Below are positions 6,502 to 27,756 of a stretch of DNA of 64,000 nt, one piece after another. Source of the DNA: Spirochaetota bacterium (GTDB taxonomy: Bacteria; Spirochaetota; UBA6919; CBDBPB01); NCBI GenBank assembly GCA_965208615.1, contig CBDBPB010000003.1:1-64000 (forward strand), in the 5' to 3' direction. Position 1 is the first letter of the stretch. The number at the start of each line of letters is the position of its first letter. Both the position numbers and the translations under genes were made by a program. A model generated the notes under the pieces. That model worked only from the letters and a program-made list of their open reading frames with translations. It was not told the DNA's origin and searched no databases.

Positions 6502-8607
6502 ATGAAAAAGGTATTTTTTATTTTAGCAATCTCTATTTTAGGTTTATCCATAGGCTGTGGAGAGAAGAAGAATGATTTATCCTGTAAACTTGCAGGTAAT
6601 TGTCCAGATGAAACAAAAAAGTCACCAGAAGACAGACTAAATGAGGCAACTCAAAGACAAACAAAAGCACAACTAGAGGTGAATACATTAACAACAAATC
6701 TATCAACAGCACAAACAGAACTAACAGAAGCACAAAATCTACCTCACAGTGCAACAAAGCAACAAACAATAGATAATGCACAAAAAGAAGTAGATAGATT
6801 AACAAAAGAGTTAGAGCTAGCAAAAGCAGAGCTAACAAAAGCTAAAAAAGCAGTAGAAGAGGCACAAAAAGAAGTAGATAAAACAGCAAAAAAGGTATGT
6901 AGAATAGTCAAAGATACAGCTGATCGTTTTAGAGTGATAACATGCCATTCTGATGCTACTACAGAAGCTACTTGTAATACTAAAAAGACCCAAGCTACAG
7001 CGGCTGGGGATAAAAATGTACAATCAGAGCTTGTTAATGAGGGGCAATGTTCATCTTTTAATGGTTATACCGCAAAACAACGAAAAGATGCAGTTGATTG
7101 GGTAAATAAAAAGCTTGGAACAAGTTATACGGTTAATGATATCCCTAATATAACTAAGCTTATTTTATCAGCCAAACTAACTAGTGATAATGATCATACC
7201 AACTTTGCTAAGCATATTGGTGTTTTTACAGGATTGACTAGTCTTGATTTAGATAATAATCAGCTAAGCTCATTACCAACCTCGATTGGCAACTTAACAA
7301 ACTTGGAGGTGCTTGATTTAGATAATAATCAGCTAAGCTCATTACCAACCTCGATTGGCAACTTAACAAACTTGGAGGTGCTTGATTTAGATGATAATCA
7401 GCTAAGCTCATTGCCAAGTAGTATTAGCAAATTAACAAACTTGAGGTGGGTTATTTTAGAGGATAACAAGCTAAGCTCATTACCAACCTGGATTGGCAAA
7501 TTAACAAACTTGAGGCAGCTTTATTTAAATAATAATAATCTAAGCTCATTACCAACTGAGATTGGCAACTTAACAAACTTGACAAGACTTGGTTTATCTT
7601 CTACTAATCTAAGCTCATTACCAACCTCGATTGGCAACTTAACAAACTTGAAGTGGCTTGCTTTACGTAATAATAATCTAAGCTCATTACCAACCTGGAT
7701 TAGCAACTTAACAAACTTGGAAGAGCTTTATTTAAGCAGTAATAATTTAAGTTCATTACCAACTGAGATTAACAAGTTAAAAAAGTTGTTTAATCTTGAT
7801 TTAAGGTCTAATCCTCTTGCTACTAATGAGGTAGAGAAAAAGAGGATAAAAACTCTTTTACCTCATTGTAAGGCACCTAGTTGTAGTATCACATTTTTTA
7901 ATGGTTATGCAACACAACAACGAAAAGATGCAGTTGATTGGGTAAATAAAAAGCTTGGAACAAGTTATACGGTTAATGATATCCCTAATATAACTAAGCT
8001 TATTTTATCAGCCAAACTAACTAGTGATGATGATCGTACTAAGCTTGCTAAGCATATTGGTGTTTTTACAGGACTAACATATCTTAGGTTGGATAGTAAT
8101 GGGCTGACCTCACTACCAGATAGTATTGGTAATTTAAAGGAATTGATGCTCCTTGAGTTACACCGTAATCAGCTAACCTCATTACCAGATAGTATTGGTA
8201 GTTTAAAAAAATTAAAAAAACTTATTTTGAGTGCCAATAACTTAAGCTCATTACCAAATAGTATTGGTAATTTATCAAATAGTTTGGAGGGACTTGCTTT
8301 AAGAAATAATAAGCTAACAGAGCCAGGTAGTATTAGTATTATTGGTAAGTTAACAAAGTTAACTGAACTTAATTTTCAAAATAATGGGTTAAAAGCCTTA
8401 CCAGATAGTATTGGTACGTTAACAAAGTTAATATGGCTTAATTTATCTGTTAATGAGTTAACCTCGTTACCAAGTAGTATTGTTAATTTGAAGGACAATT
8501 TAAAGACTATTCTTTTATCAGAGAACAATATTTCTGAAGATGAAAAAGGTAATATAAAAACACTTTTACCTAAAACTTCTATTGATTATACCAATACGAA
8601 TCCATAA
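6502..8607 (+). CDS. Leucine-rich-repeat lipoprotein (coiled coil + two LRR blocks)
   Basis: Lipobox LSIGC; 23-aa LxxLxLxxNxLSSLPxxIGNL repeats; duplicated cap FNGY...KHIGVFTGL. Confidence 0.93.
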   Translation: MKKVFFILAISILGLSIGCGEKKNDLSCKLAGNCPDETKKSPEDRLNEATQRQTKAQLEVNTLTTNLSTAQTELTEAQNLPHSATKQQTIDNAQKEVDRLTKELELAKAELTKAKKAVEEAQKEVDKTAKKVCRIVKDTADRFRVITCHSDATTEATCNTKKTQATAAGDKNVQSELVNEGQCSSFNGYTAKQRKDAVDWVNKKLGTSYTVNDIPNITKLILSAKLTSDNDHTNFAKHIGVFTGLTSLDLDNNQLSSLPTSIGNLTNLEVLDLDNNQLSSLPTSIGNLTNLEVLDLDDNQLSSLPSSISKLTNLRWVILEDNKLSSLPTWIGKLTNLRQLYLNNNNLSSLPTEIGNLTNLTRLGLSSTNLSSLPTSIGNLTNLKWLALRNNNLSSLPTWISNLTNLEELYLSSNNLSSLPTEINKLKKLFNLDLRSNPLATNEVEKKRIKTLLPHCKAPSCSITFFNGYATQQRKDAVDWVNKKLGTSYTVNDIPNITKLILSAKLTSDDDRTKLAKHIGVFTGLTYLRLDSNGLTSLPDSIGNLKELMLLELHRNQLTSLPDSIGSLKKLKKLILSANNLSSLPNSIGNLSNSLEGLALRNNKLTEPGSISIIGKLTKLTELNFQNNGLKALPDSIGTLTKLIWLNLSVNELTSLPSSIVNLKDNLKTILLSENNISEDEKGNIKTLLPKTSIDYTNTNP
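7057..8073 (+). repeat. Near-identical intragenic duplication (7057-7233 and 7897-8073) flanking 69-bp LRR tandem repeats
   Basis: CGAAAAGATGCAGTTGATTGGGTAAATAAAAAGC... is identical at 7081 and 7921 (offset 840). Confidence 0.92.
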
Positions 8608-8643
8608 TATTAAGTTTATTTTTAGGCAGCCCTTTACTTGGTG

Positions 8644-8660
8644 TACTCCCTTTGGGAGTA
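8644..8660. terminator. Hairpin between convergent genes
   Basis: TACTCCC-TTT-GGGAGTA perfect inverted repeat; no clear U tract. Confidence 0.5.
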
Positions 8661-8677
8661 TGCCATTTAGCTATGGC

Positions 8678-9757
8678 TTACTCTAACAGGGATAATATAA
8701 TATTGTGTGCTTCTTTTCTAAATATAGCCATATCCGCAAGACTGTCTTTATACGACAGATATGATCGATTAGATAATAGAGCTATCCCCATTAGTTTATT
8801 TGGGTCTATCCAGAATGATGTACCTGTAAACCCTGTATGACCAAATGACTTATCACTAAACATACAACCACATGGACTATTATTATTATCCTTAAGTTGG
8901 AATCCAAGTCCACGGGGTAGTACATTATTTGTATGATTTTTGGTCATAAGGTTTATGGTATTGGGGGATAGTATTATTTTGTTATTGTACGTACCTTTAT
9001 TTACTATCATATTCATGTATATGGCAATGTCATAGGCGGTTGAGAACAGTCCTGCATTACCCCCTATACCATTAAACATATACGAGTTGTCATCGTGAAC
9101 CTTACCATGAATTATGTATTTTCTATATTCAGACTCCCCACTGGGGACTATATTATCCCTTAGGCTGTCTGGAGGATTAAAATAGCTATTAGCCATATTA
9201 AGGGGATCAAATATCCACTTTTTAGCAAGGACATCCAATGGCATAGAGGTTATTTGTTCAATGATCAGCTTTAGTAAAATAAATCCCATACAGCTATAAA
9301 CCACTTTACTATTTGGTCTATCTTCGAGGGGTAAAGATAATAGAGTACTAATCCCATAGTCTATTGGCATATTTTCATTATAAAGGTTATGCCATGCTGG
9401 TAGGCCAGATGTATGAGTTAACAGCTGTTTTATGGTTATCTCGTTTTTATATGGTATTTTAAACTCGTCAAAGTAAATGGATATTTTATCATCCAGCTTT
9501 ATTTTACCTTTTTCATAGAGCATCATGATTATAGTACTTGTGATTATGGGTTTGGTTAGCGAGGCAACATCAAATATACTATTTTTAGTTAGGGGTATAG
9601 ATTGCTTATATCCAAAGGCGTTGTGGAGTATTATATAGTTATTTTGTATGGCCATAACCTCAATACACGTAAACAGTCTATTGTTTATGGCATCACTAAT
9701 TAGCTTGTTTAATAAGCTTAGTTTGTTTTTATTAAAGGATATATTCGTTGTTAGCAT
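8678..9757 (-). CDS. Serine hydrolase, beta-lactamase class C / AmiE-like family
   Basis: FDVASLTK (SxxK), LLTHTSGL, YSCMGF, GKVHDDN, FGHTGFTGT. Confidence 0.92.
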   Translation of the reverse strand: MLTTNISFNKNKLSLLNKLISDAINNRLFTCIEVMAIQNNYIILHNAFGYKQSIPLTKNSIFDVASLTKPIITSTIIMMLYEKGKIKLDDKISIYFDEFKIPYKNEITIKQLLTHTSGLPAWHNLYNENMPIDYGISTLLSLPLEDRPNSKVVYSCMGFILLKLIIEQITSMPLDVLAKKWIFDPLNMANSYFNPPDSLRDNIVPSGESEYRKYIIHGKVHDDNSYMFNGIGGNAGLFSTAYDIAIYMNMIVNKGTYNNKIILSPNTINLMTKNHTNNVLPRGLGFQLKDNNNSPCGCMFSDKSFGHTGFTGTSFWIDPNKLMGIALLSNRSYLSYKDSLADMAIFRKEAHNIILSLLE

Positions 9758-9838
9758 ATATCGCTATTATCAATTTCATTTAAAATGAAGTATATCCTCA
9801 TTTAAGCCTATATTCCCTTGTAGGTATTTCGCTTATTT

Positions 9839-10261
9839 TTATGACACAAGTTTTAATATTGTGTTTATTGCCTTCTCATCCGCTTGCTGTTCCTCTTCTT
9901 TATAGTGTAAGAAAAGCTTTACAATTTGCTCAGCCTTTTTCTTGGGGTCAATCTTAGCGTTTAGCTTGATACACGCCTTCTCAGAAAGATATATAATCTC
10001 AGTTAATAAGTTAATATCGCCTTTTTTTATTTCTTCTGATTCAGCCTCTTCTAAAAACATATTGCCTTTTCCGGATAATAGCCAAGTTGGATTAATTTTA
10101 TAAACTTCCATTAATCGAGCAATTTGTCCAGAATTAAGTTCTTGTATCCCGTTTTCTAACCGGCTTAAGCTATTTCGCTTAACATATAAAGTGTTAGACA
10201 TTTCAGCTTGGGTTATTTTAAGGACATCTTTTCTTATTTTTCTTAATCTTTGTCCAATCAA
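9839..10261 (-). CDS. XRE-family HTH phage repressor
   Basis: IGQRLRKIRK..ITQAEM...LSRLENG...INPTWLLSGKGNMF. Confidence 0.9.
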   Translation of the reverse strand: MIGQRLRKIRKDVLKITQAEMSNTLYVKRNSLSRLENGIQELNSGQIARLMEVYKINPTWLLSGKGNMFLEEAESEEIKKGDINLLTEIIYLSEKACIKLNAKIDPKKKAEQIVKLFLHYKEEEQQADEKAINTILKLVS

Positions 10262-10286
10262 TTTGCATTCTCGTTAAAAATACCTG

Positions 10287-10345
10287 TTTTATGGATTTTT
10301 TTTGACGAATCACTTGACTTTTGACCATAAAATGGCTATTTTATA
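10287..10345. promoter_or_regulatory. Divergent repressor/Cro switch region
   Basis: Lies between two divergent HTH genes; three TTGAC repeats; inverted pair TTTTATGG / CCATAAAA and palindromic CCATAAAATGG. Confidence 0.45.
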
Positions 10346-10430
10346 TTTGTAACGTCTCATTATGTAATTTAACTCAAGATGAATTAACTTACAACTTTTA
10401 TTAATAAAAAAATTATAAAAGGAGTTATTA

Positions 10431-10634
10431 ATGTCTGTAAACAATATTCAAGACTCTAAAGCAAAAAAAAGAAAAAAATACTGTAAAATAGTACTAGTAC
10501 AAAAAGGAATAACTCAAGAACAAGCCGCTGAACTTTTGGGAATTACTCGTAGATCCGTTAACTCTTATGTAAACGGTAAATTAAACTCTAAAAAACTTGA
10601 CTCCTGGTTCGGCTGGGAGAATGGCAATGTTTAA
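10431..10634 (+). CDS. Small Cro/Ner-like HTH regulator
   Basis: GITQEQAAELLGITRRSVNSYVNG; RBS AAGGAG; divergent from the repressor. Confidence 0.85.
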   Translation: MSVNNIQDSKAKKRKKYCKIVLVQKGITQEQAAELLGITRRSVNSYVNGKLNSKKLDSWFGWENGNV

Positions 10635-10640
10635 ATATTA

Positions 10641-10829
10641 ATGAAGTATTTTGAGCCTATACCATCATCAGAACTGCCTAAGCTAACAAAACATGAACGA
10701 GATTATATAATTGGAGTGATAAATAAATACCATCACATGGATGATGATGAAAAAAATAAGCTTTATAAAACTTTAAAAGCTGTTGTCCTAAAGGATAAAT
10801 GGCTAAGACAAAACAGGGAGAAAAAATGA
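10641..10829 (+). CDS. Hypothetical phage early protein
   Basis: 62-aa ORF tightly packed in the operon; its stop overlaps the next start (ATGA). Confidence 0.6.
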   Translation: MKYFEPIPSSELPKLTKHERDYIIGVINKYHHMDDDEKNKLYKTLKAVVLKDKWLRQNREKK

Positions 10830-11833
10830 AAACATTATGGAGATATTTACTAATAACAATTTTAATAGCTGTAATAATTTTAATATTTCTCATTCAAAAA
10901 GAACTATTTATCCAAGAAATGAACTCCGTATCCTTAGGCATATCCACTTTAGCGGCCGTCCTAATATTAGAAATAATAAGCCATGTGTTTTTGTTCAAGT
11001 CAAACAAAAGATTAGCAAAAACCGTGTTTGGTACAATATCAGCCGTGCTAATTGCCTTTGCCAGCTTTGCTAACTTCGCTGTTATGACAAGCCTATCCCT
11101 TAACAAAAACAAAGAAATCCAAACCATCACCATAAACAATAACGCTAAATATCAAAACTCATACAAAAATAAAGAGTTAATATCAAAAAGAATGGGCAGT
11201 ATAGAACAACAAATAAAAGCTAAATATCAAACTATAAATAAAATACAAAGTACTGATTCAAGATGGATGATCCATAGACTGAATAACGATATTAAGAACT
11301 TAAATCAAACTTGGACAAAGGAACAGGCTAAGCTATCCAATCTAAAACCTATAGCACTAAAAACCAAAAAAGAAACCATATTGGCCTCCTTAGACCAGCG
11401 AACTGGTATTCCAGCAACTGTTGTAAGCATGTTTAATAAAGCTTTTATATCCATTTTACTAAGTATAATTCCATTATCGTTTTGTTATTTGCTTGTCTCT
11501 CTTCCTGTAACAAAAATAACCCCCTTCGATAAAAATAAAGCCAATAACCTCCATAATGTAAACAGGAAAGGGGGACAAGCAGTTTTTTCTAGCGAGCCTA
11601 AACAAACATCCAAACCGCTAGAACAAAGCAGTAATCAAACAGTTGACTATATATCAGACTGCCTAAGCAAGCTAAACATAAATAGAAAAGAGCTGTCTGA
11701 TAAGTTAAAAATTACTACTGGGTATCTAAAAAAAATAGAGAGGTCAAATGACGTCCCACTTTGGGTACAAAGCAAACTGACAAGTCTAATCAACCATCAA
11801 GGAGGAAGTTATGAACGAATTAGCTACAACTGA
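10826..11833 (+). CDS. Membrane protein (3 TM + coiled coil + TM) with C-terminal HTH
   Basis: Hydrophobic segments; C-terminal LNINRKELSDKLKITTGYLKKIE HTH-like motif; start MKTLW follows GGGAG. Confidence 0.7.
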   Translation: MKTLWRYLLITILIAVIILIFLIQKELFIQEMNSVSLGISTLAAVLILEIISHVFLFKSNKRLAKTVFGTISAVLIAFASFANFAVMTSLSLNKNKEIQTITINNNAKYQNSYKNKELISKRMGSIEQQIKAKYQTINKIQSTDSRWMIHRLNNDIKNLNQTWTKEQAKLSNLKPIALKTKKETILASLDQRTGIPATVVSMFNKAFISILLSIIPLSFCYLLVSLPVTKITPFDKNKANNLHNVNRKGGQAVFSSEPKQTSKPLEQSSNQTVDYISDCLSKLNINRKELSDKLKITTGYLKKIERSNDVPLWVQSKLTSLINHQGGSYERISYN

Positions 11834-12557
11834 TATTATAACTGATGAGTTAACTGACGGACTTATTTTTGATCCTGACAGAACAGCGGGAATCGTAAAA
11901 GAACTTCATGCAAACACCCTTCTGAACATAATTGAACTAGGAAGACATTTAATTCTAGCTAAAGAACGACTTGATCATGGAGAATTTGGTTTATGGATAA
12001 AAGAGTCTTGCGGCTTTTCCTATAGCTCTGCACGTAGTTATATGCAAATAGCAAAAAGATACTACCCTTATAAAAATGAGATAATTGATATGAAGGCTTT
12101 TGCTTTCAAAGCCGTTGCCAAACTTCCTGATGATCTTTTTGATGAAGCAATGAAAACTGGAAAACTGGAAGGAAAAGATGTAAACGAACTCTCAAAAAGA
12201 GATGTGCTAAATATGGCTGAAAAAGCTAAGGCAGGCGAAGAGATTGAAAAACGAAAAAGAATAGAAAAAGAAAAACAAATTGAACTCGGCAAAGTCCAGC
12301 TTACTGAAAAAGATAAAGAAATCGAAAAGCTTGAAGATCAAATAGAAGACCTGAAAAATCCTAACAAGCTTTGTATAGAGAATCTTAAAAAAGCCCAAGA
12401 CCTCATAAACGAAGCTGTTTTCAGCATACAAAAAGCAAGCATAATAAATATAGAACAAAGACAGGCTACTGATTTGCTGTCAAGTCTTGTAACAACTATA
12501 AAAAGCGTCCAGACTGCATGGGGAGTCAGATGGGACGACAGGCTTATTAGGAGATAA
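11811..12557 (+). CDS. DUF3102-domain protein
   Basis: IIELGRHLILAKERLDHGEFGLWI...SARSYMQIA; RBS GGAGG; typically found just upstream of Mu-like transposases. Confidence 0.85.
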   Translation: MNELATTDIITDELTDGLIFDPDRTAGIVKELHANTLLNIIELGRHLILAKERLDHGEFGLWIKESCGFSYSSARSYMQIAKRYYPYKNEIIDMKAFAFKAVAKLPDDLFDEAMKTGKLEGKDVNELSKRDVLNMAEKAKAGEEIEKRKRIEKEKQIELGKVQLTEKDKEIEKLEDQIEDLKNPNKLCIENLKKAQDLINEAVFSIQKASIINIEQRQATDLLSSLVTTIKSVQTAWGVRWDDRLIRR

Positions 12558-12558
12558 C

Positions 12559-14157
12559 ATGCCACGGTTGACTAATTCTGAATGGGAAGACATAATAGAC
12601 ATACTAACCACGCAAGGCCTAAGCCTTATACCAGAACTTGCTAAAAAATATGGCGTTACCCCTCAATCCGTAAACAGACAACTTAGAAAATATGGATACA
12701 GACGTAGGAATAAGCGATCAGATAAGGGAGAAAAAATACTGCCAGAAAACGTATACCACAAGCTTGTCCTTTTAGTCAATACCTATAAGCGCCCAGCAGA
12801 AGAGGCAATCAAAGACCTTATAATAGACGGCACCATAAAAGGAGAAATTGAAAATGGACAGCTGATAAAGTCTCCAATTCATCCATCCACACTAAGAAGA
12901 TGGCTAAGGGATGATGAGCTTGGCAGAAAGTCTAAACTTAAAAAAGCAAGCCTCAGACTAACTACAAGTTACCCTTTAGAAGTTCTACAGTGGGATTCCA
13001 CAAGGGCTACTCAGTGGTATGTCAGCCATGAAAAAAATAACGACTCTGTTGTTAAGTATATTAGTCCAATGTCTGAGAATAAGAATAGGTCTAATAAAAA
13101 GACTAAACTTGTGTTCATGGCATTCCAGGATATGTTCAGTAGGAAGGTCTGGTTTAAGGTGGATACTCATGAGTCCACCCAAACTTGGTTACAGCAGTTT
13201 TATGAGGTAACTAGCAAAACAGGACTGCCAAAGTATATTTATACTGATAATGCCTCTATGTTCCACAGAAGCGGAGTTGTCAATAAAACCTTAAAAGAGT
13301 TGAATGTTGAGCTTCTAACCCATATACCTGGCAACCCCCAAGCAAAGGGCATGATTGAAAGGTCTATACAGTTTTTGGAGAAAAGATCGAGCATAACCCG
13401 CATTGAGAAAATCACTACCCTAAAACAGTATAACCAAATGGTAAATGCAATAGCTAATGAATATAACAGCAGGACTCACTCAGTAACAGATATGGCTCCA
13501 AATACATTATTTTACAGCCATCTACAGCATCTAACAGTTGTGATGCCTCCTGATTACAAAAGCTTTATGAGCCTTTGTCCTAAATGGGACTCAAGGCTTT
13601 TGATGCCCAACTTTACCATTAAGTGGAATGGTAAAACATATCAAGCCAAAACTTATAGGAATATTTTGTCAAACAGCATAGGCAAAAAAGTAAAAGTAGA
13701 AGAGGATATTAGGGATAGAGACAAGATTAACATTATTGCGGAAGGAAAAGAAATTAAGGCTCTTAATATTGATATTTATGGAGAGGATATAATACCTTTT
13801 GGAGCTTTTAAACAAATGCCGGAAAGCAAAAAGGATAAGCTTAAGAAAGAACTTGAAAGCTATAAAAACGTTACCACAGGTAGTTATACAACCAGAATCG
13901 AGATGGTATCAGGGCTGGAAAAAGTAAGCAAAAAGCAATACGAAAAACCAAATGTAGTAAACTTTAACATTAAAAGAAATATCAATCAGACTGCCCATGA
14001 CTTTGAGTCAGCGTGTATATACTTAGCAAGCAATGATATAAAAGTAACCACTGCTGTTGAGCTGACTCTTGAGAACCTCTTTGGTGATAGAAATAAAATA
14101 TATGAAAGTGAACTTAACTCTCTAATTAGAAAAGTTAAAGAGGCTGACTCAGCCTAA
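12559..14157 (+). CDS. MuA-like DDE transposase
   Basis: N-terminal HTH; catalytic LQWDST, IYTDNAS and PGNPQAKGMIERS; YNSRTHS; beta-rich C-terminal domain. Confidence 0.9.
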   Translation: MPRLTNSEWEDIIDILTTQGLSLIPELAKKYGVTPQSVNRQLRKYGYRRRNKRSDKGEKILPENVYHKLVLLVNTYKRPAEEAIKDLIIDGTIKGEIENGQLIKSPIHPSTLRRWLRDDELGRKSKLKKASLRLTTSYPLEVLQWDSTRATQWYVSHEKNNDSVVKYISPMSENKNRSNKKTKLVFMAFQDMFSRKVWFKVDTHESTQTWLQQFYEVTSKTGLPKYIYTDNASMFHRSGVVNKTLKELNVELLTHIPGNPQAKGMIERSIQFLEKRSSITRIEKITTLKQYNQMVNAIANEYNSRTHSVTDMAPNTLFYSHLQHLTVVMPPDYKSFMSLCPKWDSRLLMPNFTIKWNGKTYQAKTYRNILSNSIGKKVKVEEDIRDRDKINIIAEGKEIKALNIDIYGEDIIPFGAFKQMPESKKDKLKKELESYKNVTTGSYTTRIEMVSGLEKVSKKQYEKPNVVNFNIKRNINQTAHDFESACIYLASNDIKVTTAVELTLENLFGDRNKIYESELNSLIRKVKEADSA

Positions 14158-14175
14158 CAAATAAGGAGCGCTACT

Positions 14176-15024
14176 ATGATTACCAAAATGAAAGAAAGAG
14201 CTGTTCCAAAACTAAAAAAAGGAACTGAAGATAGCATTAACAAACTTATTGATAACATTAGTATTATCAACAAAATAGAAAATGAAAAGGATATATTTTT
14301 ATCTGAAGGCTTTAGACTTGCATTCGCCTTTATATTCAACGCAATTAAGAATAAGAAGTTCATTGCTATAACCGGTGAGACAGGCTCTGGCAAGACATAC
14401 CTCGTTAGATATTTGGCTGACTTTTATAAAAATGACAGTTCAACAATAATATGCAATATAGAAAATCATGAGTTTATCAAAGTAGGACTAAGACAAATAT
14501 ACGAAGCTCTTTTATTTGACATTCAGCCTGGCACAAAGACAACAAGATCAAATGAGGCCTTTATAAGACAGGTAAAGCATATACTAACTTCTTTGGTTAA
14601 AGAGAATAAGAAGGCCGTCCTTATTGTGGATGAGGCTCACAGAATGAACAAGGATAATCTGTTTTCCTTAAAAAGCATTTGGGAGAGTACTTATGGCTTT
14701 AGCAGGCTTATTAGTATAGTGCTGATAGGACAGAACAAGCTATCCACATTGTTGAATGAGCCTAATAACAAAGAAATCAACAATAGAATAGAATGTCTAT
14801 CAATAGCCAGCATTGCAACCCCTGATGAGTGCAGAGAGTATATAAAACATATTGCAAAGACTAATAAACTTAATATCAGTTGTATTGACAATTCCGCCTT
14901 TGAAGAGATAGCCAAACGCCAATCATCCTTTTTGGAGATAAACAAACTTTTAAAAGAAGGTTTAATTATAGCCAAAAATGCTGGGTCTAATATTTTGACT
15001 AATAAACATTTTAAACACATCTAA
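14176..15024 (+). CDS. MuB/ExeA-like AAA+ transposition ATPase
   Basis: Walker A GETGSGKT, Walker B LIVDEAH, IVLIGQ; directly after the transposase. Confidence 0.9.
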   Translation: MITKMKERAVPKLKKGTEDSINKLIDNISIINKIENEKDIFLSEGFRLAFAFIFNAIKNKKFIAITGETGSGKTYLVRYLADFYKNDSSTIICNIENHEFIKVGLRQIYEALLFDIQPGTKTTRSNEAFIRQVKHILTSLVKENKKAVLIVDEAHRMNKDNLFSLKSIWESTYGFSRLISIVLIGQNKLSTLLNEPNNKEINNRIECLSIASIATPDECREYIKHIAKTNKLNISCIDNSAFEEIAKRQSSFLEINKLLKEGLIIAKNAGSNILTNKHFKHI

Positions 15025-15040
15025 AAACAAGGAGAGTAAA

Positions 15041-15424
15041 ATGATTTTTAACATGGAAAAAGACAAAATTAAAGAAGTTAAAAAGCTTATCAAGTGCTAC
15101 AAAGCTCTTAAGGCCATGGAAAATAGCTATAACAGCCTAAGCAAAAAGGTTATTAGCTTTATGGTTAGAGGAGAGAGCATAAATACCAACAAAGGCAGGG
15201 TAAGCCTTGCTGAGACTAAATACACACTCATTGATCCAATAACGTTAAAAGACGCTATTGAAAAGGGGACTATAACAAAAGAGAACGCCTCCAGCTGGAT
15301 AAGTGAGAGATATACCCTAACCAAAAAAGGTAAGGAAGCTCTAAAAGGTAATGTAAGGGCTCTGGTTGACATAACTAACACATCCACAAGCGAAAGGCTA
15401 TATGTAAAAGCAAATGACAAATAG
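15041..15424 (+). CDS. Hypothetical phage early protein
   Basis: RBS AGGAG; in operon between the ATPase and GemA-like genes. Confidence 0.7.
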   Translation: MIFNMEKDKIKEVKKLIKCYKALKAMENSYNSLSKKVISFMVRGESINTNKGRVSLAETKYTLIDPITLKDAIEKGTITKENASSWISERYTLTKKGKEALKGNVRALVDITNTSTSERLYVKANDK

Positions 15425-15821
15425 TATTAGCAATAGACAAATAGCTAAAATATGGGCTTGCACAAATGAAGTTAGGCTACCCAAAGAGGCTTTATACGAG
15501 ATAATCTATGGTCTTTGTGGAAAGCAGTCAATAAGACAATTGACAAGGCAGGAGGCTTACAAGATTATAGAGACATTAATATCAAAATATAACGCCTCAA
15601 AGGGTAGATATAGAAATACTAAGCCACCCCCAAACTCAAAAGGGAATATAATTTCCCTTATGAGTCCAGGTCAAAAAAGGAAAATATTAAAACTATGCTA
15701 TCAACTAAAATGGGATGAAGAAGAACTTAATAACTTCTCTAATAAAATTGTTAAAAAGCCCTATGATAAATTATCTAAGGAACAAGCATCCATATTGATT
15801 GAGGCTCTAAAGGCTGTTTAA
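15414..15821 (+). CDS. GemA-like (DUF1018) Mu-type regulatory protein
   Basis: RQIAKIW...GKQSIRQLTRQEAYKIIETL...QKRKILKL..W...QASILIEALKA pattern. Confidence 0.8.
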   Translation: MTNSISNRQIAKIWACTNEVRLPKEALYEIIYGLCGKQSIRQLTRQEAYKIIETLISKYNASKGRYRNTKPPPNSKGNIISLMSPGQKRKILKLCYQLKWDEEELNNFSNKIVKKPYDKLSKEQASILIEALKAV

Positions 15822-16072
15822 AATCAACCAACTAATAACTATGTTATACGTCTTATAAGCATTAACAATAGACTTTTGTCTCTTCACTATAATCAGCATT
15901 AATACCCCCTATCATCTTTTATAGCTTATAAAAAGCTGTAAACCTTTAATTATCTCGTTTACTTTTGATAAAATAAAAATTATTTTTGTTTTTCAGCAAT
16001 TGACCGATAAGTCCATATAGTAAATTGTTTGAATATTATCCTTCATAATGTTAAATATATATAGGGGTACAA

Positions 16073-18130
16073 ATGAAATATAAAGTAATAGTTGGTATAA
16101 TATTAGCTTTTTTAGTTACTAATATAGTTATAGCTATTACTGAGAACCAAAAACGTCTTACGGCAGAACGTTTATTTAAAGAAGGTGTTTATTATTTTAA
16201 TCAGAGAGAATATATAGCGGCATCGAGTAAGTTTACTTCTGCTCTATCAAGCGATGTAACATATTATAAAGGTAAATATTGGTTAGGCAAGGCATATTAT
16301 CACAGTGGATATATTCAAAATGCTATTATAGAGTGGGAAAGGGCATTAAATGCTGTTGGAGAAGACCATTTATTACAAAACAAAATAACAAGACTATTAA
16401 GGGCTATGGTTGATCCTGCAAAGCCTAAAGTTGATGCAAATGAGTTTTTACCTACAAAAGGGTTTTCAGCATCAAGTGTTATTGGTTTACAGGCTCCTAT
16501 ATCTATTGTGGCAGATCGTAGTGAGTTGTATTGGGTGGTAAGTTATTTGTCAAACAGAATAGACGTTTTTGACAAAAATGGTATAAAACTACATACCATA
16601 GATCAGGGTAATAGTAAATTTAAGAATCCTTATGATTTAGCTATTGCATCTAATGGTAGTTTTTACGTATCCGACTTTGGGAATGATCTTGTTCATAAAT
16701 ACGACTCTAATAGAAAATATCTCTTTTCTATTGGCGGATCAGGTATAAATAACGGTGAGTTCTATGGACCACAAGGATTAACCTTAGATAAAAATAATAA
16801 TCTTTACGTTATTGACAGCGAAAATAATAGAATCCAAAAGTTTGATCCTGCAGGTCGATTTTTGCTATCCTTCGGTAAAAAAGGTGAGAATTATAATGAA
16901 CTTAATCAGCCATGCGATATCCTAATTATTGATAACCGTATATACGTTACAGATACTGGTAATCACCGTATACAAGTTTTTGATCATAGCGGAAACTGGA
17001 TAAAAGCTATCGGAGATAATACCTTTATTAAACCAAAGGGAATTAAAAGCCTATCCAAAAACGAGATCATTGTTGCAGATGAAAAAAAGGGAATATTAAA
17101 AGTAAATTTGTCTTCTCTTAATATTAAAACTATTATACCAATAAATAAAAAGCTTAAGTCTCCTTCTGATATAGCCATAGATAAAAATAATATTTTATAT
17201 ATTAGTGATCCATCCAAGTATGACATTTTAGCCTATGCTCCAAAGCAAATGAAGTTTAATAATTTAGACGTTAATATTTTAGAAAGTAATTCTTTAAACT
17301 TTCCAAAACTTATTTATAAAGTTAATGTCAAGGATCAGTTTGGAGAGCCTATTTATGGGTTAACCGAAAATAACTTTCAGCTTACCGAAAAAGGTATTTA
17401 TCATAAGGTTAAGGTAACTCCAGGGCATAAGATCAAAACTGGTATATCAATAGTCTTTGTAAATGAAAAGTCTAATGCTATGATAGCTCATAGGGATCAT
17501 CTAAAATTTGTATCTAAAAAAGTATTAGAATCCCTTTCCAATAAGGATAGAACTGAGGTTATTGACTTTAGTGGCGGATCTAACTCTAATAATGATCCTT
17601 TGAATGATAGTTATAAGATATCCCAACCTTTTATTAACAATGTACTATCCCCTCTAAAGGCTATATTGGAAAAAGCAAACTCCGCAAATAATGCTTTTAT
17701 CGGAAAGGCTCTTTATAAGGGGATTAGTGATGCTATGGATGATAATACATATATTTCCGCTGTTGTGATTATAACCTCTGGTAAGCTGAGTGAGAATACT
17801 TTTGATCCTTACGGATATGAAGTTTGTTTGAACTACGCTAAAAATAACGGTATTCCTATTTATGTTATATCTTTTGCTGAAAAGGATAATATTAATTATG
17901 AACTAGAGCTATTGGCTAAGTCTACAAAGGGTAGCTATTTTAATGCTTATACCTCAAATGAGATATATAAATTAAAAGAAATCATAAATAAAAATAAATT
18001 GGGTAATTATTATATTACGTATAAATCTAATTCACTTGTTGATAAAGAGTTTAAGTGGCAACAGGTAAATATTAAGGTTACTCTAAAAGATATTTTTGGA
18101 CACGACCGCTCTGGATATTTTTCTCCTTAA
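16073..18130 (+). CDS. Exported TPR + NHL beta-propeller + VWA-like protein
   Basis: Signal peptide; TPR WLGKAYYHSG; NHL repeats GEFYGPQGL..YVIDSENNRIQKFD; VWA-like C-terminus. Confidence 0.85.
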   Translation: MKYKVIVGIILAFLVTNIVIAITENQKRLTAERLFKEGVYYFNQREYIAASSKFTSALSSDVTYYKGKYWLGKAYYHSGYIQNAIIEWERALNAVGEDHLLQNKITRLLRAMVDPAKPKVDANEFLPTKGFSASSVIGLQAPISIVADRSELYWVVSYLSNRIDVFDKNGIKLHTIDQGNSKFKNPYDLAIASNGSFYVSDFGNDLVHKYDSNRKYLFSIGGSGINNGEFYGPQGLTLDKNNNLYVIDSENNRIQKFDPAGRFLLSFGKKGENYNELNQPCDILIIDNRIYVTDTGNHRIQVFDHSGNWIKAIGDNTFIKPKGIKSLSKNEIIVADEKKGILKVNLSSLNIKTIIPINKKLKSPSDIAIDKNNILYISDPSKYDILAYAPKQMKFNNLDVNILESNSLNFPKLIYKVNVKDQFGEPIYGLTENNFQLTEKGIYHKVKVTPGHKIKTGISIVFVNEKSNAMIAHRDHLKFVSKKVLESLSNKDRTEVIDFSGGSNSNNDPLNDSYKISQPFINNVLSPLKAILEKANSANNAFIGKALYKGISDAMDDNTYISAVVIITSGKLSENTFDPYGYEVCLNYAKNNGIPIYVISFAEKDNINYELELLAKSTKGSYFNAYTSNEIYKLKEIINKNKLGNYYITYKSNSLVDKEFKWQQVNIKVTLKDIFGHDRSGYFSP

Positions 18131-18179
18131 ACAAATGTATACAAATAGTTATTAATACTTATTAACATTAGAGGTAAGC

Positions 18180-18770
18180 TTGAAATTTCTTAGAAAACTA
18201 TACGATTGGGTTCTTCATTGGGCAAAAACTCCTTATGGTGTTCCTGCATTATTCATACTGGCATTTGCGGAGTCATCATTTTTTCCTATTCCTCCGGATG
18301 TATTGCTAATAGCTTTGGCATTATCTATTAGTACTAAAGCTTTTTATTATGCTTTTATTTGTTCTATTGCATCCATAATTGGCGGTATTGCTGGATATGG
18401 GATTGGTTGGGGTTTATGGGAGATAGTAAAATCCAGTTTTTTTACTTATATACCTGGTTTTTCACAAAGTGAGTTTGACTATGTTAAGGCTTTATATGAT
18501 GAATACAACTTTTGGATAGTTTTTGCAGCTGGATTCTCTCCAATACCTTATAAGGTAATTACTATAGCCGCTGGAGCTTTTAATATAAACTTCTATATAT
18601 TTGTTATAGCTTCTGCTATTAGTAGGAGTGCAAGATTCTTTTTAGTTGCAGGACTCATATATAAATTTGGAGAACAAATAAAAGAATTCATTGATAGATA
18701 TTTTAATTGGCTTAGTTTAGCATTCATTATTTTGTTAGTGGGATTTTATTTCATATTTAAGTTAATATAG
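18180..18770 (+). CDS. DedA/YqaA-family membrane protein
   Basis: AFAESSFFPIPPDVLL; FSPIPYKVITIAAG. Confidence 0.92.
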   Translation: MKFLRKLYDWVLHWAKTPYGVPALFILAFAESSFFPIPPDVLLIALALSISTKAFYYAFICSIASIIGGIAGYGIGWGLWEIVKSSFFTYIPGFSQSEFDYVKALYDEYNFWIVFAAGFSPIPYKVITIAAGAFNINFYIFVIASAISRSARFFLVAGLIYKFGEQIKEFIDRYFNWLSLAFIILLVGFYFIFKLI

Positions 18771-18853
18771 TCAACTTAAAAAGCTAAGGGATTAATAATC
18801 CCATAATAAACTTGATATAGATTACCTTATACCAGCTTTATTGGAGAACAAAT

Positions 18854-20815
18854 ATGAAATGGTTATCAGCATTATTTCTAATTACATTTATGATCCCAAT
18901 TGCTTATGCCATACCAAAGTCTGCTATCACTCACTTACAACAGGGTGAAAAAGCTTATAGCGATAAAAGGTATATGACTGCATTAACCAGTTATCGGAAT
19001 GCCTTAAAAGTTAATCCAAACTATAAAGAAGCTAAAATTGGTATGGGAAAAGCTTTTTATCAGCTAAAAAACTATGATAAGGCACTTAACTTTTTCAAGG
19101 ATGCCGAAAGTCAATTTAAAAATGATTATATAATAAAGGTCTGGGTCGCAAAAACCAGAATAGAACAAAAAAGATATGATAGTGCCGAATCATATTTAAG
19201 AAAGGCTATTTTTCTTTATCCCAGAGATAGTAATACCTATATGGTATATGGTGATTTATACTTTAAAAAGCAAAACTATAATAAGGCAATATCTAGTTAC
19301 GATGAAACTCTTAAAATAGTACCCAAAAATACAAAAGCTCTTATTAAAATCGCAATAACATATCTCAAGGTCAACAAGGAAGATATGGCTCTTAAGTATT
19401 TTGAAAAAGCCGAAGATATTGATAATACTAATCCCCTTACTAACTATTATTTAGGTGAATATTACTATAATAAAAAAGATTATGAGAATGCTAATCAACA
19501 CTTGAGAATATCTTTAATGGCCTCTCCTGTTCATGTTCCCAGTATGGAGATTCTCTCACAACTCCTTTATGAAAAAGAAGACTGGGAAGAGTCTAAAAGT
19601 ATTATGGAAAGGCTTATTTCTCTTAATCCAAAAAACAAAAAATATTATTATCACCTTGGTTTAGTTTATGAAAAATTAGAAAAACCTCTATTAAGTATAA
19701 ACACCTTAATGGATGGCCTTAAAATAGACATCGGTGATGAGGCAATACGATATCAGGCAGAGGAAATATATAATAATTATCGTTTTCATCCCGAAATAAA
19801 AAATATAGGAAAACCCTTATCCGATTACTGGTTTAAAAAGGGTAAGAGCTATATAAAACAAAGTTTACCAAATTATGCTTTTTTTGCTTTTAGACGAGCA
19901 CGACGTATTAATCCAAGTTTTAAAATACGATTCGAACTTGCTAAAATCTATAGGTCAAAAGGCTTTATTGATAGATATAACTTAGAGTTAAAGGATATAA
20001 AAGAAACTTTATCCCCTATAAACAGAGACTTTGATGATGAACTTCGTTTTAGCGAAAGGACTACTAGACGTCTTCTATCAAACAAAGAAGGTATTAATCA
20101 ATATGATTTACCCAAAACTAAACCTATAATTGCTTTATTACCCTTTTCAAAGAATACTAATTTTAATCATCATTACGGTGTGGATGAGCTTTATAGAAAA
20201 GTTTTATATACCACCCTTAAAATGAAAGACAGGCTTAACGTTATAATGATCGATGAAAAAAACAAGTCTGTAAAAGGATATGAACATACTGCAAAAAGTA
20301 TGAATGCTGATTTTATTATTAAAGGAGAGGTTAGGGAAAGTAATCTGGGAGTTGAGGTAAAGCTAAATATTTATAATCTGATAGATGGAGAAATCTTTAA
20401 AACTGTTAAGATATATCAAAGAGGAAATGATAGATTCCTTGTCTCTGCCGTATACCTTAGTAATAGGTTAGAGGAGCTTTTCCCTGTTTTTGCTAAGATA
20501 ATAAGGAAAAACTATAAAGAATTAATTATAACTTTGGGAAAAAGACATGGATACAAAAAAGGGGATAGGTTTTATGTTATTCCAGAGGATAGTATTTTCA
20601 AAAAAATATTAACTGATAAAAAGCTAATGAATATTGTTAGGGACAAATCTACTATAGAGCGGCTTCTTTTATCATATTTGCCAAAACCCAGATATGGAAT
20701 AGAAGAAATAGAAATCGAGGAACTTGATGAAAATATATCAAAAGCACGACTTATGACTGCTGATTTTTTTGATCAGGTTAATATTAATGACTACATCATC
20801 CATAAGCCAAAATAA
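18854..20815 (+). CDS. Exported TPR protein with C-terminal CsgG/FlgT-like region
   Basis: Signal peptide; many TPRs; IALLPF...ADFIIKGEV...LGKRHGYKKGDRF. Confidence 0.8.
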   Translation: MKWLSALFLITFMIPIAYAIPKSAITHLQQGEKAYSDKRYMTALTSYRNALKVNPNYKEAKIGMGKAFYQLKNYDKALNFFKDAESQFKNDYIIKVWVAKTRIEQKRYDSAESYLRKAIFLYPRDSNTYMVYGDLYFKKQNYNKAISSYDETLKIVPKNTKALIKIAITYLKVNKEDMALKYFEKAEDIDNTNPLTNYYLGEYYYNKKDYENANQHLRISLMASPVHVPSMEILSQLLYEKEDWEESKSIMERLISLNPKNKKYYYHLGLVYEKLEKPLLSINTLMDGLKIDIGDEAIRYQAEEIYNNYRFHPEIKNIGKPLSDYWFKKGKSYIKQSLPNYAFFAFRRARRINPSFKIRFELAKIYRSKGFIDRYNLELKDIKETLSPINRDFDDELRFSERTTRRLLSNKEGINQYDLPKTKPIIALLPFSKNTNFNHHYGVDELYRKVLYTTLKMKDRLNVIMIDEKNKSVKGYEHTAKSMNADFIIKGEVRESNLGVEVKLNIYNLIDGEIFKTVKIYQRGNDRFLVSAVYLSNRLEELFPVFAKIIRKNYKELIITLGKRHGYKKGDRFYVIPEDSIFKKILTDKKLMNIVRDKSTIERLLLSYLPKPRYGIEEIEIEELDENISKARLMTADFFDQVNINDYIIHKPK

Positions 20816-27522: not shown

Positions 27523-27756
27523 TGCGTTCCCTAATCGGTTTTATAAAAGATAAAGAAACTTTAGTAAAATGTCAAACTATTTTTTATTTTATACTTATAT
27601 AATAAAGACTTCTACTAAATATAATAAAAAGATATTTTATGATATTTTAACAAGTTAGAAATGGTATCGGTTAACAATTTATTTATCACCTTATGATAAA
27701 ATATTTAAGTTAACCAGTATAAAAAGTAAGTGTTAGAACGTTTTTACAATAGTCTA

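Follow-up and report, generated by a model that had tools for sequence, protein, structure and literature searches.

Genes and borders of a Mu-like block

The window analysed here is a stretch of 64,000 nucleotides from a Spirochaetota bacterium, corresponding to C3:1-64000 of a 2.46-Mb genome in 9 contigs. At 9839-15821 it carries a block of nine genes that resembles the early region of the transposable phage Mu, and every one of the nine is an uninterrupted open reading frame (ORF). A first-pass annotation, made from the sequence alone, had described this locus as a compact Mu-like transposition module. We assigned the ORFs of the window to families by Pfam and PHROG profile scans; together with the ORF list, these scans agree with the gene inventory given there.

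The leftmost gene encodes an Xre-type repressor of 140 amino acids (9839-10261, reverse strand; HTH_19, 1e-10; phrog_8/phrog_4). It diverges from a gene for a small, 67-residue helix-turn-helix (HTH) protein of the Cro/Ner kind (10431-10634; HTH_3, 8.2e-8), which, like all genes that follow, lies on the forward strand. An ORF of 62 residues (10641-10829) matched no Pfam or PHROG family, and its neighbour of 344 residues (10799-11833) matched no Pfam family at E<=0.01. The latter had been read as a membrane-HTH protein. Hydrophobic N-terminal segments can be recognized, by eye only, and no profile match was obtained for the HTH part. The series continues with a DUF3102 protein of 248 residues (11811-12557; PF11300, 3.8e-11; phrog_15609) and a DDE transposase of 532 residues (12559-14157; phrog_310, 3.3e-36 over residues 26-473). 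Directly downstream of the transposase lies a MuB-like AAA+ ATPase of 282 residues (14176-15024; AAA_22, 7.4e-23; phrog_296, 'DNA transposition protein', 1.8e-26). An ORF of 127 residues without a Pfam or PHROG match (15041-15424) and a GemA-like protein of 135 residues (15414-15821; PF06252, 5e-10, 40.8 bits against a cut-off of 27) complete the block. Across it, the content of guanine plus cytosine in 500-bp (base pair) windows is 0.27-0.41, little different from the surroundings.

In Mu the early region has the order c, ner, A, B ... gemA, mor. The block is like Mu in that its repressor diverges from a Ner/Cro-like gene, its DDE transposase is followed by an AAA+ ATPase, and GemA ends the early operon. 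Unlike that of Mu, its transposase has no Mu-specific Pfam domain and stays under the cut-off for the Pfam family rve (23.4 against 32.6 bits), and its nearest relatives beyond four close homologues are about 30% identical. As to the three catalytic motifs noted in the first pass, residues D146, D230 and E267 are invariant in four of four aligned relatives, and retroviral integrase cores have their catalytic D and E at the positions aligned to D230 and E267. The control region between the divergent repressor and Cro genes (10262-10430) contains a 16-nucleotide repeat, at 10277-10292 and 10329-10344, and also an inverted repeat. We very tentatively regard the repeat copies as candidate operators; promoter-like sites in this region are no commoner than in shuffled sequences.

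Host genes lie close on both sides. To the left is a beta-lactamase-fold gene (8678-9757, reverse strand), and the spacer from its start codon to the stop codon of the repressor (9758-9838), which holds the left breakpoint, measures the 81 bp originally reported. To the right, a spacer of 251 bp (15822-16072) separates GemA from an NHL/TPR gene (16073-18130, forward strand). The block has no genes for virion formation, lysis or late activation next to it, as the first pass had also concluded.

A complete sister prophage in the same genome

Searching the genome for other copies of the block yielded one, internal to a complete Mu-like prophage on contig C7 (C7:424829-460177, 35,349 bp). The tips of this prophage, at 424829 and 460177, read outward as 5'-TGTTA...TAACA-3', and blastn between its outer zones revealed a perfect terminal inverted repeat of 47 bp (424837-424883 versus 460123-460169). 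The sequence CAGCAC stands directly outside both tips. Beyond them, the DNA on the two sides represents one unit of a dispersed repeat: C7:424507-424829 resembles C4:110287-110606 (87%) and C7:460173-460553 resembles C4:110596-110973 (92%). Because the uninterrupted target paralogue at C4:110287-110975 has a single CAGCAC (110600-110605), the C7 prophage is a true transposition product, with a target duplication of 5 or 6 bp, and its contig is not mis-joined. Its TG..CA tips and the size of the duplication are as in Mu.

The late genes of the C7 prophage include those for lysis, the terminase large subunit, a portal-MuF fusion of 991 residues, protease, scaffold, major head, sheath, tape measure, baseplate and fibre. 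It also carries its own Cro (62 residues), its own repressor and an excisionase-like HTH gene. Between its Cro and the part held in common with the window lie three tandem Ant-like genes and a gene for a 162-residue HTH protein. The Ant-like proteins, paralogous anti-repressors encoded at C7:432957-435250, have 213, 215 and 325 residues; phrog_524 was matched by the one scanned, and near-identical N-termini mark the remaining two as its paralogues.

A FliA-like sigma gene (C7:425066-425851) begins on the stop codon of the C7 GemA gene and has 87% DNA identity to a paralogue at C4:36420-37147. The C4 paralogue is found among genes whose translations resemble, by eye, flagellar export genes. We considered an insertion of the prophage into a fliA paralogue and rejected it: there is no 5' gene fragment elsewhere, and the sigma gene is inside the prophage.

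On one strand, the C7 prophage runs from tip and fibre through heads and lysis to the repressor; on the other, it runs from Cro through Ant, the early genes, transposase, ATPase, GemA and sigma to the second tip. A third related element, at C7:139129-171023, has a divergent-arm order like that of the C7 prophage. Since this order recurs there, it is normal for the lineage, in which the late arm lies beyond the repressor and faces the opposite direction. This arrangement differs from Mu, as does the position of the FliA-like sigma gene, which in the C7 lineage follows GemA where Mu has mor.

The copies in the window and on C7 are much alike. In a blastn search of 7001-19000 against the genome, window 10639-15823 matched C7:431041-425841 with 98.5% identity over 5,202 columns, a block of seven genes in the same order that begins where Cro stops and the 62-residue ORF starts, and ends in the last GemA codons. 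At the protein level, the 344-residue ORF, the ATPase and the 127-residue ORF are each 100% identical to their C7 copies, and the transposases agree at 529 of 532 residues (99.4%; the differences are N64S, M312I and L402F). GemA is 97% identical, the DUF3102 protein 93.7% (51% to that of the third element) and the 62-residue ORF 91.9%. The differences are patchy. None occur in the 1,864 bp from 13763 to 15626, and a dense patch with a 15-bp indel occupies 11839-12078; the proportion of synonymous sites that differ (pS) is 0.13 in this DUF3102 patch. Such a pattern is expected of tracts of recombination or gene conversion.

The immunity genes stand apart from this near-identity. The window repressor is 45% identical to that of the C7 prophage and 57% to that of the third element, and the window Cro is 47% identical to its 62-residue C7 counterpart. 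In an alignment of the three repressors, the HTH halves have diverged and the C-terminal roughly 60 residues are conserved. Because repressor and Cro are just 45-47% identical to those of the C7 prophage, the window block is probably heteroimmune to the C7 phage.

The first pass had named two findings that would speak against a self-contained module: closest homologues within full prophages, and the rest of the phage elsewhere in the assembly. This is largely what the genome holds. The closest homologue is in the complete C7 prophage, although C7 holds a second copy rather than the part that the window copy itself has lost.

A repeat of 5.2 kb invites the concern that the assembly was mis-joined within it and that the window copy in truth continues into other phage parts. 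The 1,864-bp stretch free of differences between the copies is indeed beyond the reach of short-read phasing. Counter to this, the left border, from repressor to host gene, is outside the repeat, and the host sequences beside the C7 prophage complement each other to a single repeat unit, whose halves meet at the target duplication, a relationship that a swap on the right side would break. Both window junctions are also spanned by long contigs from the Logan assembly of run X1. One, of 2,698 bases, covers the left junction (7999-10696) with zero differences; the other, of 24,014 bases, extends from 11946 onward across the right junction, again without a difference. This is an independent assembly, though the X1 reads may be the source data of the genome. 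We give a mis-join almost no credence.

Depth in X1 is 5.8-6.9 on the flank contigs and 12.4 on the collapsed shared piece (10667-11887). This fits two copies of the block and no excess replication, and the excess of read coverage that the first pass had proposed to look for is not seen. Other runs add little: in X2 the organism has a depth of 2-3 and sporadic cover, so that uncovered parts are uninformative, and X3 contains next to nothing of the window stretch. A Logan contig of 423 bases from X2 (depth 2.4) joins 16985-16844, on the reverse strand, directly to 10804-11084 on the forward strand. It could reflect an inversion of 10804-16843 or, equally, a chimeric read or low-depth assembly error.

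A probable early-arm remnant without C7-type ends

The borders of the window copy are abrupt. On the left, the window copy ceases to resemble the repressor regions of the two sister elements at about 9840, where its own repressor has its stop codon. On the right, the breakpoint is in the last GemA codons, where the window protein ends in ...EALKAV and the C7 copy in ...EALKGVYKNA, and similarity between window and C7 is gone by 15823. The window copy is without the late arm, without the FliA-like sigma gene and without either tip; the absence of tips and late genes also separates it from Mu.

We looked for ends in several ways. Word-7 blastn of 9700-9860 and 15790-16080 against both end zones of the C7 prophage found nothing end-like, and the right spacer gave only chance matches of 9-16 bp to the C7 sigma gene and adjacent end region. 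A tip profile built from 8 end copies and run on the whole genome with nhmmer found 33 sites at E<0.01; on contig C3 there were 0 sites at E<5, the best match (E=5.6) being at 27610, distant from the element. The failure of the first pass to find TG...CA ends is thereby reproduced with a profile. Exact 12-mers common to both flanks were at chance level, and the short motif AACGTTYTA, which belongs to the tip-like sequences described below, is no commoner in the window than expected (44 matches, expected 49). No target duplication was found at the block, where there are no ends to anchor one.

These results bear on the reading of the block as a mini-Mu or satellite, a 6-kb unit mobilised and packaged with the help of the C7 prophage. 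In favour of this idea, no gene of the unit is interrupted, the same cell houses a helper whose transposase is nearly identical, and about 30 tip-like sequences dispersed in the genome suggest that short end-bearing DNA may have moved. The block also shares with laboratory mini-Mu and natural non-autonomous transposons its small size and its lack of virion genes. Mini-Mu elements, however, keep both ends by definition, and the block has neither: no end-like sequence was recovered in or beside it by nhmmer or by word-7 blastn against both C7 ends, and a target duplication is likewise missing. The unit exists in one copy only with these borders, the other copy being embedded in a full prophage; the read depth corresponds to two copies exactly; and the right border cuts the GemA C-terminus. 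We therefore find a helper-dependent unit very improbable.

Instead, we interpret the block, with good confidence, as the remnant of a cryptic Mu-like prophage that looks intact through youth or gene conversion. It consists of phage genes in a host chromosome without movement and virion modules, which is what characterizes a cryptic prophage. The remnant would represent the early arm and immunity switch of a heteroimmune relative of the C7 phage. Both outer parts would have been lost, probably by two deletions, one ending at most 81 bp from the repressor stop codon and the other in the last GemA codons. The 5.2-kb early block may be a young or recently shared module, or may have been homogenised by recombination or gene conversion with the C7 prophage.

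As both transposase-binding tips and everything outside the repressor-to-GemA interval are lost, the block is predicted neither to transpose nor to be packaged as a unit. Because the two transposases differ at only 3 of 532 residues, the window copy should depend on ends of the C7 type. Its repressor would hold the early operon shut and may make the cell immune to phages that share this repressor's immunity type. Upon derepression of the operon, the window transposase and ATPase would be limited to working in trans, on ends elsewhere.

Among the closest parallels are the 'grounded' cryptic prophages of E. coli K-12, as portrayed in one report (PMC6379469). They too are host-flanked phage genes that have lost mobility and virion modules, kept a repressor and could give immunity. 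The window block differs from that account (PMC6379469) in that it lost transposon tips rather than att sites and integrase, and in that it keeps the complete and near-identical transposition genes of a live phage.

Several observations weigh against decay as the whole explanation. That all nine genes and both host neighbours are intact is somewhat lucky for two random deletions, and could mean selection for retention. The ratio of non-synonymous to synonymous differences per site (pN/pS, Nei-Gojobori) between the two copies, the dN/dS comparison proposed in the first pass, is low: overall it is 0.17, and for the transposase, which has 10 synonymous and 3 non-synonymous differences, it is 0.08. 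Purifying selection has thus acted on at least one lineage between the copies, and the test does not tell which one. Ends of another sequence type are formally possible. No empty site or longer ancestral locus was found, since close relatives are absent among the 60 genomes searched, and in G001, a genome of the same order, the NHL orthologue has a different upstream neighbour, so that synteny is not kept. The open frames themselves are expected even without selection, given 0-3% synonymous divergence outside the dense patch.

Selection for retention is at the heart of a further alternative, in which the block is a domesticated immunity or regulatory island: the repressor would be kept against a second immunity type of this phage family, and the remaining operon would be a silent passenger. 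The repressor and Cro genes are unbroken, and their products share just 45-47% identity with the C7 counterparts. The three repressors have dissimilar HTH halves next to a conserved C-terminal region of about 60 residues, and the left breakpoint leaves the repressor whole with a margin of no more than 81 bp. Superinfection immunity provided by cryptic prophages has also been proposed in print (PMC6379469). Against such an island as the cause of the block's preservation, the intactness of the other seven genes is already explained by their 98.5-100% identity to a live phage. We consider this alternative unlikely. Among the origins that the first pass had put forward, then, a deleted prophage accounts for the absence of the late arm, the sigma gene and both tips; the same absences speak against a mini-Mu or satellite; and an immunity island is compatible with an intact repressor of another specificity class.

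Related elements and rarity of the lineage

The transposase has few relatives. In a search of 5.8 billion clusters, 5 proteins were found at E<=0.001: the window's own cluster, three, from contigs no longer than 7.6 kb, with identities of 70%, 47% and 46%, and an insertion sequence (IS)-type transposase at 27%. A metagenome scan retrieved one marine-sediment contig of 1,890 bp that encodes a relative at 53% and whose shortness hides the gene neighbourhood. Exhaustive phmmer searches gave 1 protein at E<=1e-30, 47 at E<=1e-10 and 375 at E<=1e-3, with identities of about 30% beyond the first. Among the 60 relatives of the host, none of 60 carried a true homologue; the best matches were IS-like, at 23-34%, with no Mu-like context. 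No related locus was found in IMG/VR or among GTDB representatives.

The third element on C7 shows a different selection of genes. It has a tip-like end, several fibre paralogues, baseplate, tube, sheath, lysis and excisionase-like genes, its own repressor, an HTH gene, DUF3102 and GemA. By tblastn at E<=1e-5 it lacks counterparts of terminase, portal, protease, scaffold, major head, tape measure, Ant, transposase and ATPase. It may represent either a tailocin-like derivative or a prophage in decay. Between its sheath-side and lysis genes (C7:162981-165193) are six tandem paralogous small ORFs of 88-132 residues, all starting MITDDLRQEIKREV..., and after its GemA side the ORF translations suggest, by eye, stretches resembling transfer RNA genes.

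The dispersed repeat into which the C7 prophage inserted has a length of about 500-700 bp, with more than 50 pieces genome-wide (blastn); examples are C4:110287-110975, C4:155393-155457, C4:560072-560136, C1:43178-43237 and C2:82650-82715. Thirteen copies start at one sharp boundary with a tip-like sequence of about 65 bp, TGTTA.. AACGTTYTA N15 AACGTTYTA. Behind many copies come tandem arrays whose periods range from about 74 to 318 bp. Because its terminus is tip-like, we suggest that this repeat may have been, or may still be, moved by a Mu-like transposase. The window has its own copy, at about 1951-2414, without the terminus. Another repetitive feature of the window is a gene at 6502-8607 for a 701-residue leucine-rich-repeat protein resembling a lipoprotein, with near-identical internal units (80-84% in blastn self-matches); related leucine-rich-repeat matches also occur on contig C4.

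We see a small chance that the block is retained as a second, separately controlled source of trans-acting transposase and ATPase, under a repressor of another immunity type. If so, it might act on the tips of the resident prophage and on the dispersed repeat, at about 30 tip-like termini, and the conserved C-terminal domain of the repressor might be a target of the three Ant-like proteins of the full prophage. Cross-induction among the three elements, via Ant-like proteins and conserved repressor C-termini, is conceivable. If the block does act in trans, the full phage, the early-arm remnant and the head-less tail/lysis element would form one cross-regulated network.

The genome is the sole member of its family among the genomes examined, and it holds three related elements of a very rare Mu-like lineage. 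The window block by itself is probably an ordinary cryptic prophage and does not qualify as a new kind of compact Mu transposon. Its value lies in its context: the three elements together show the decay of such a phage into modules. They also offer a natural setting in which to test trans-acting transposase, heteroimmunity, and recombination or conversion of a live prophage with its fossil.

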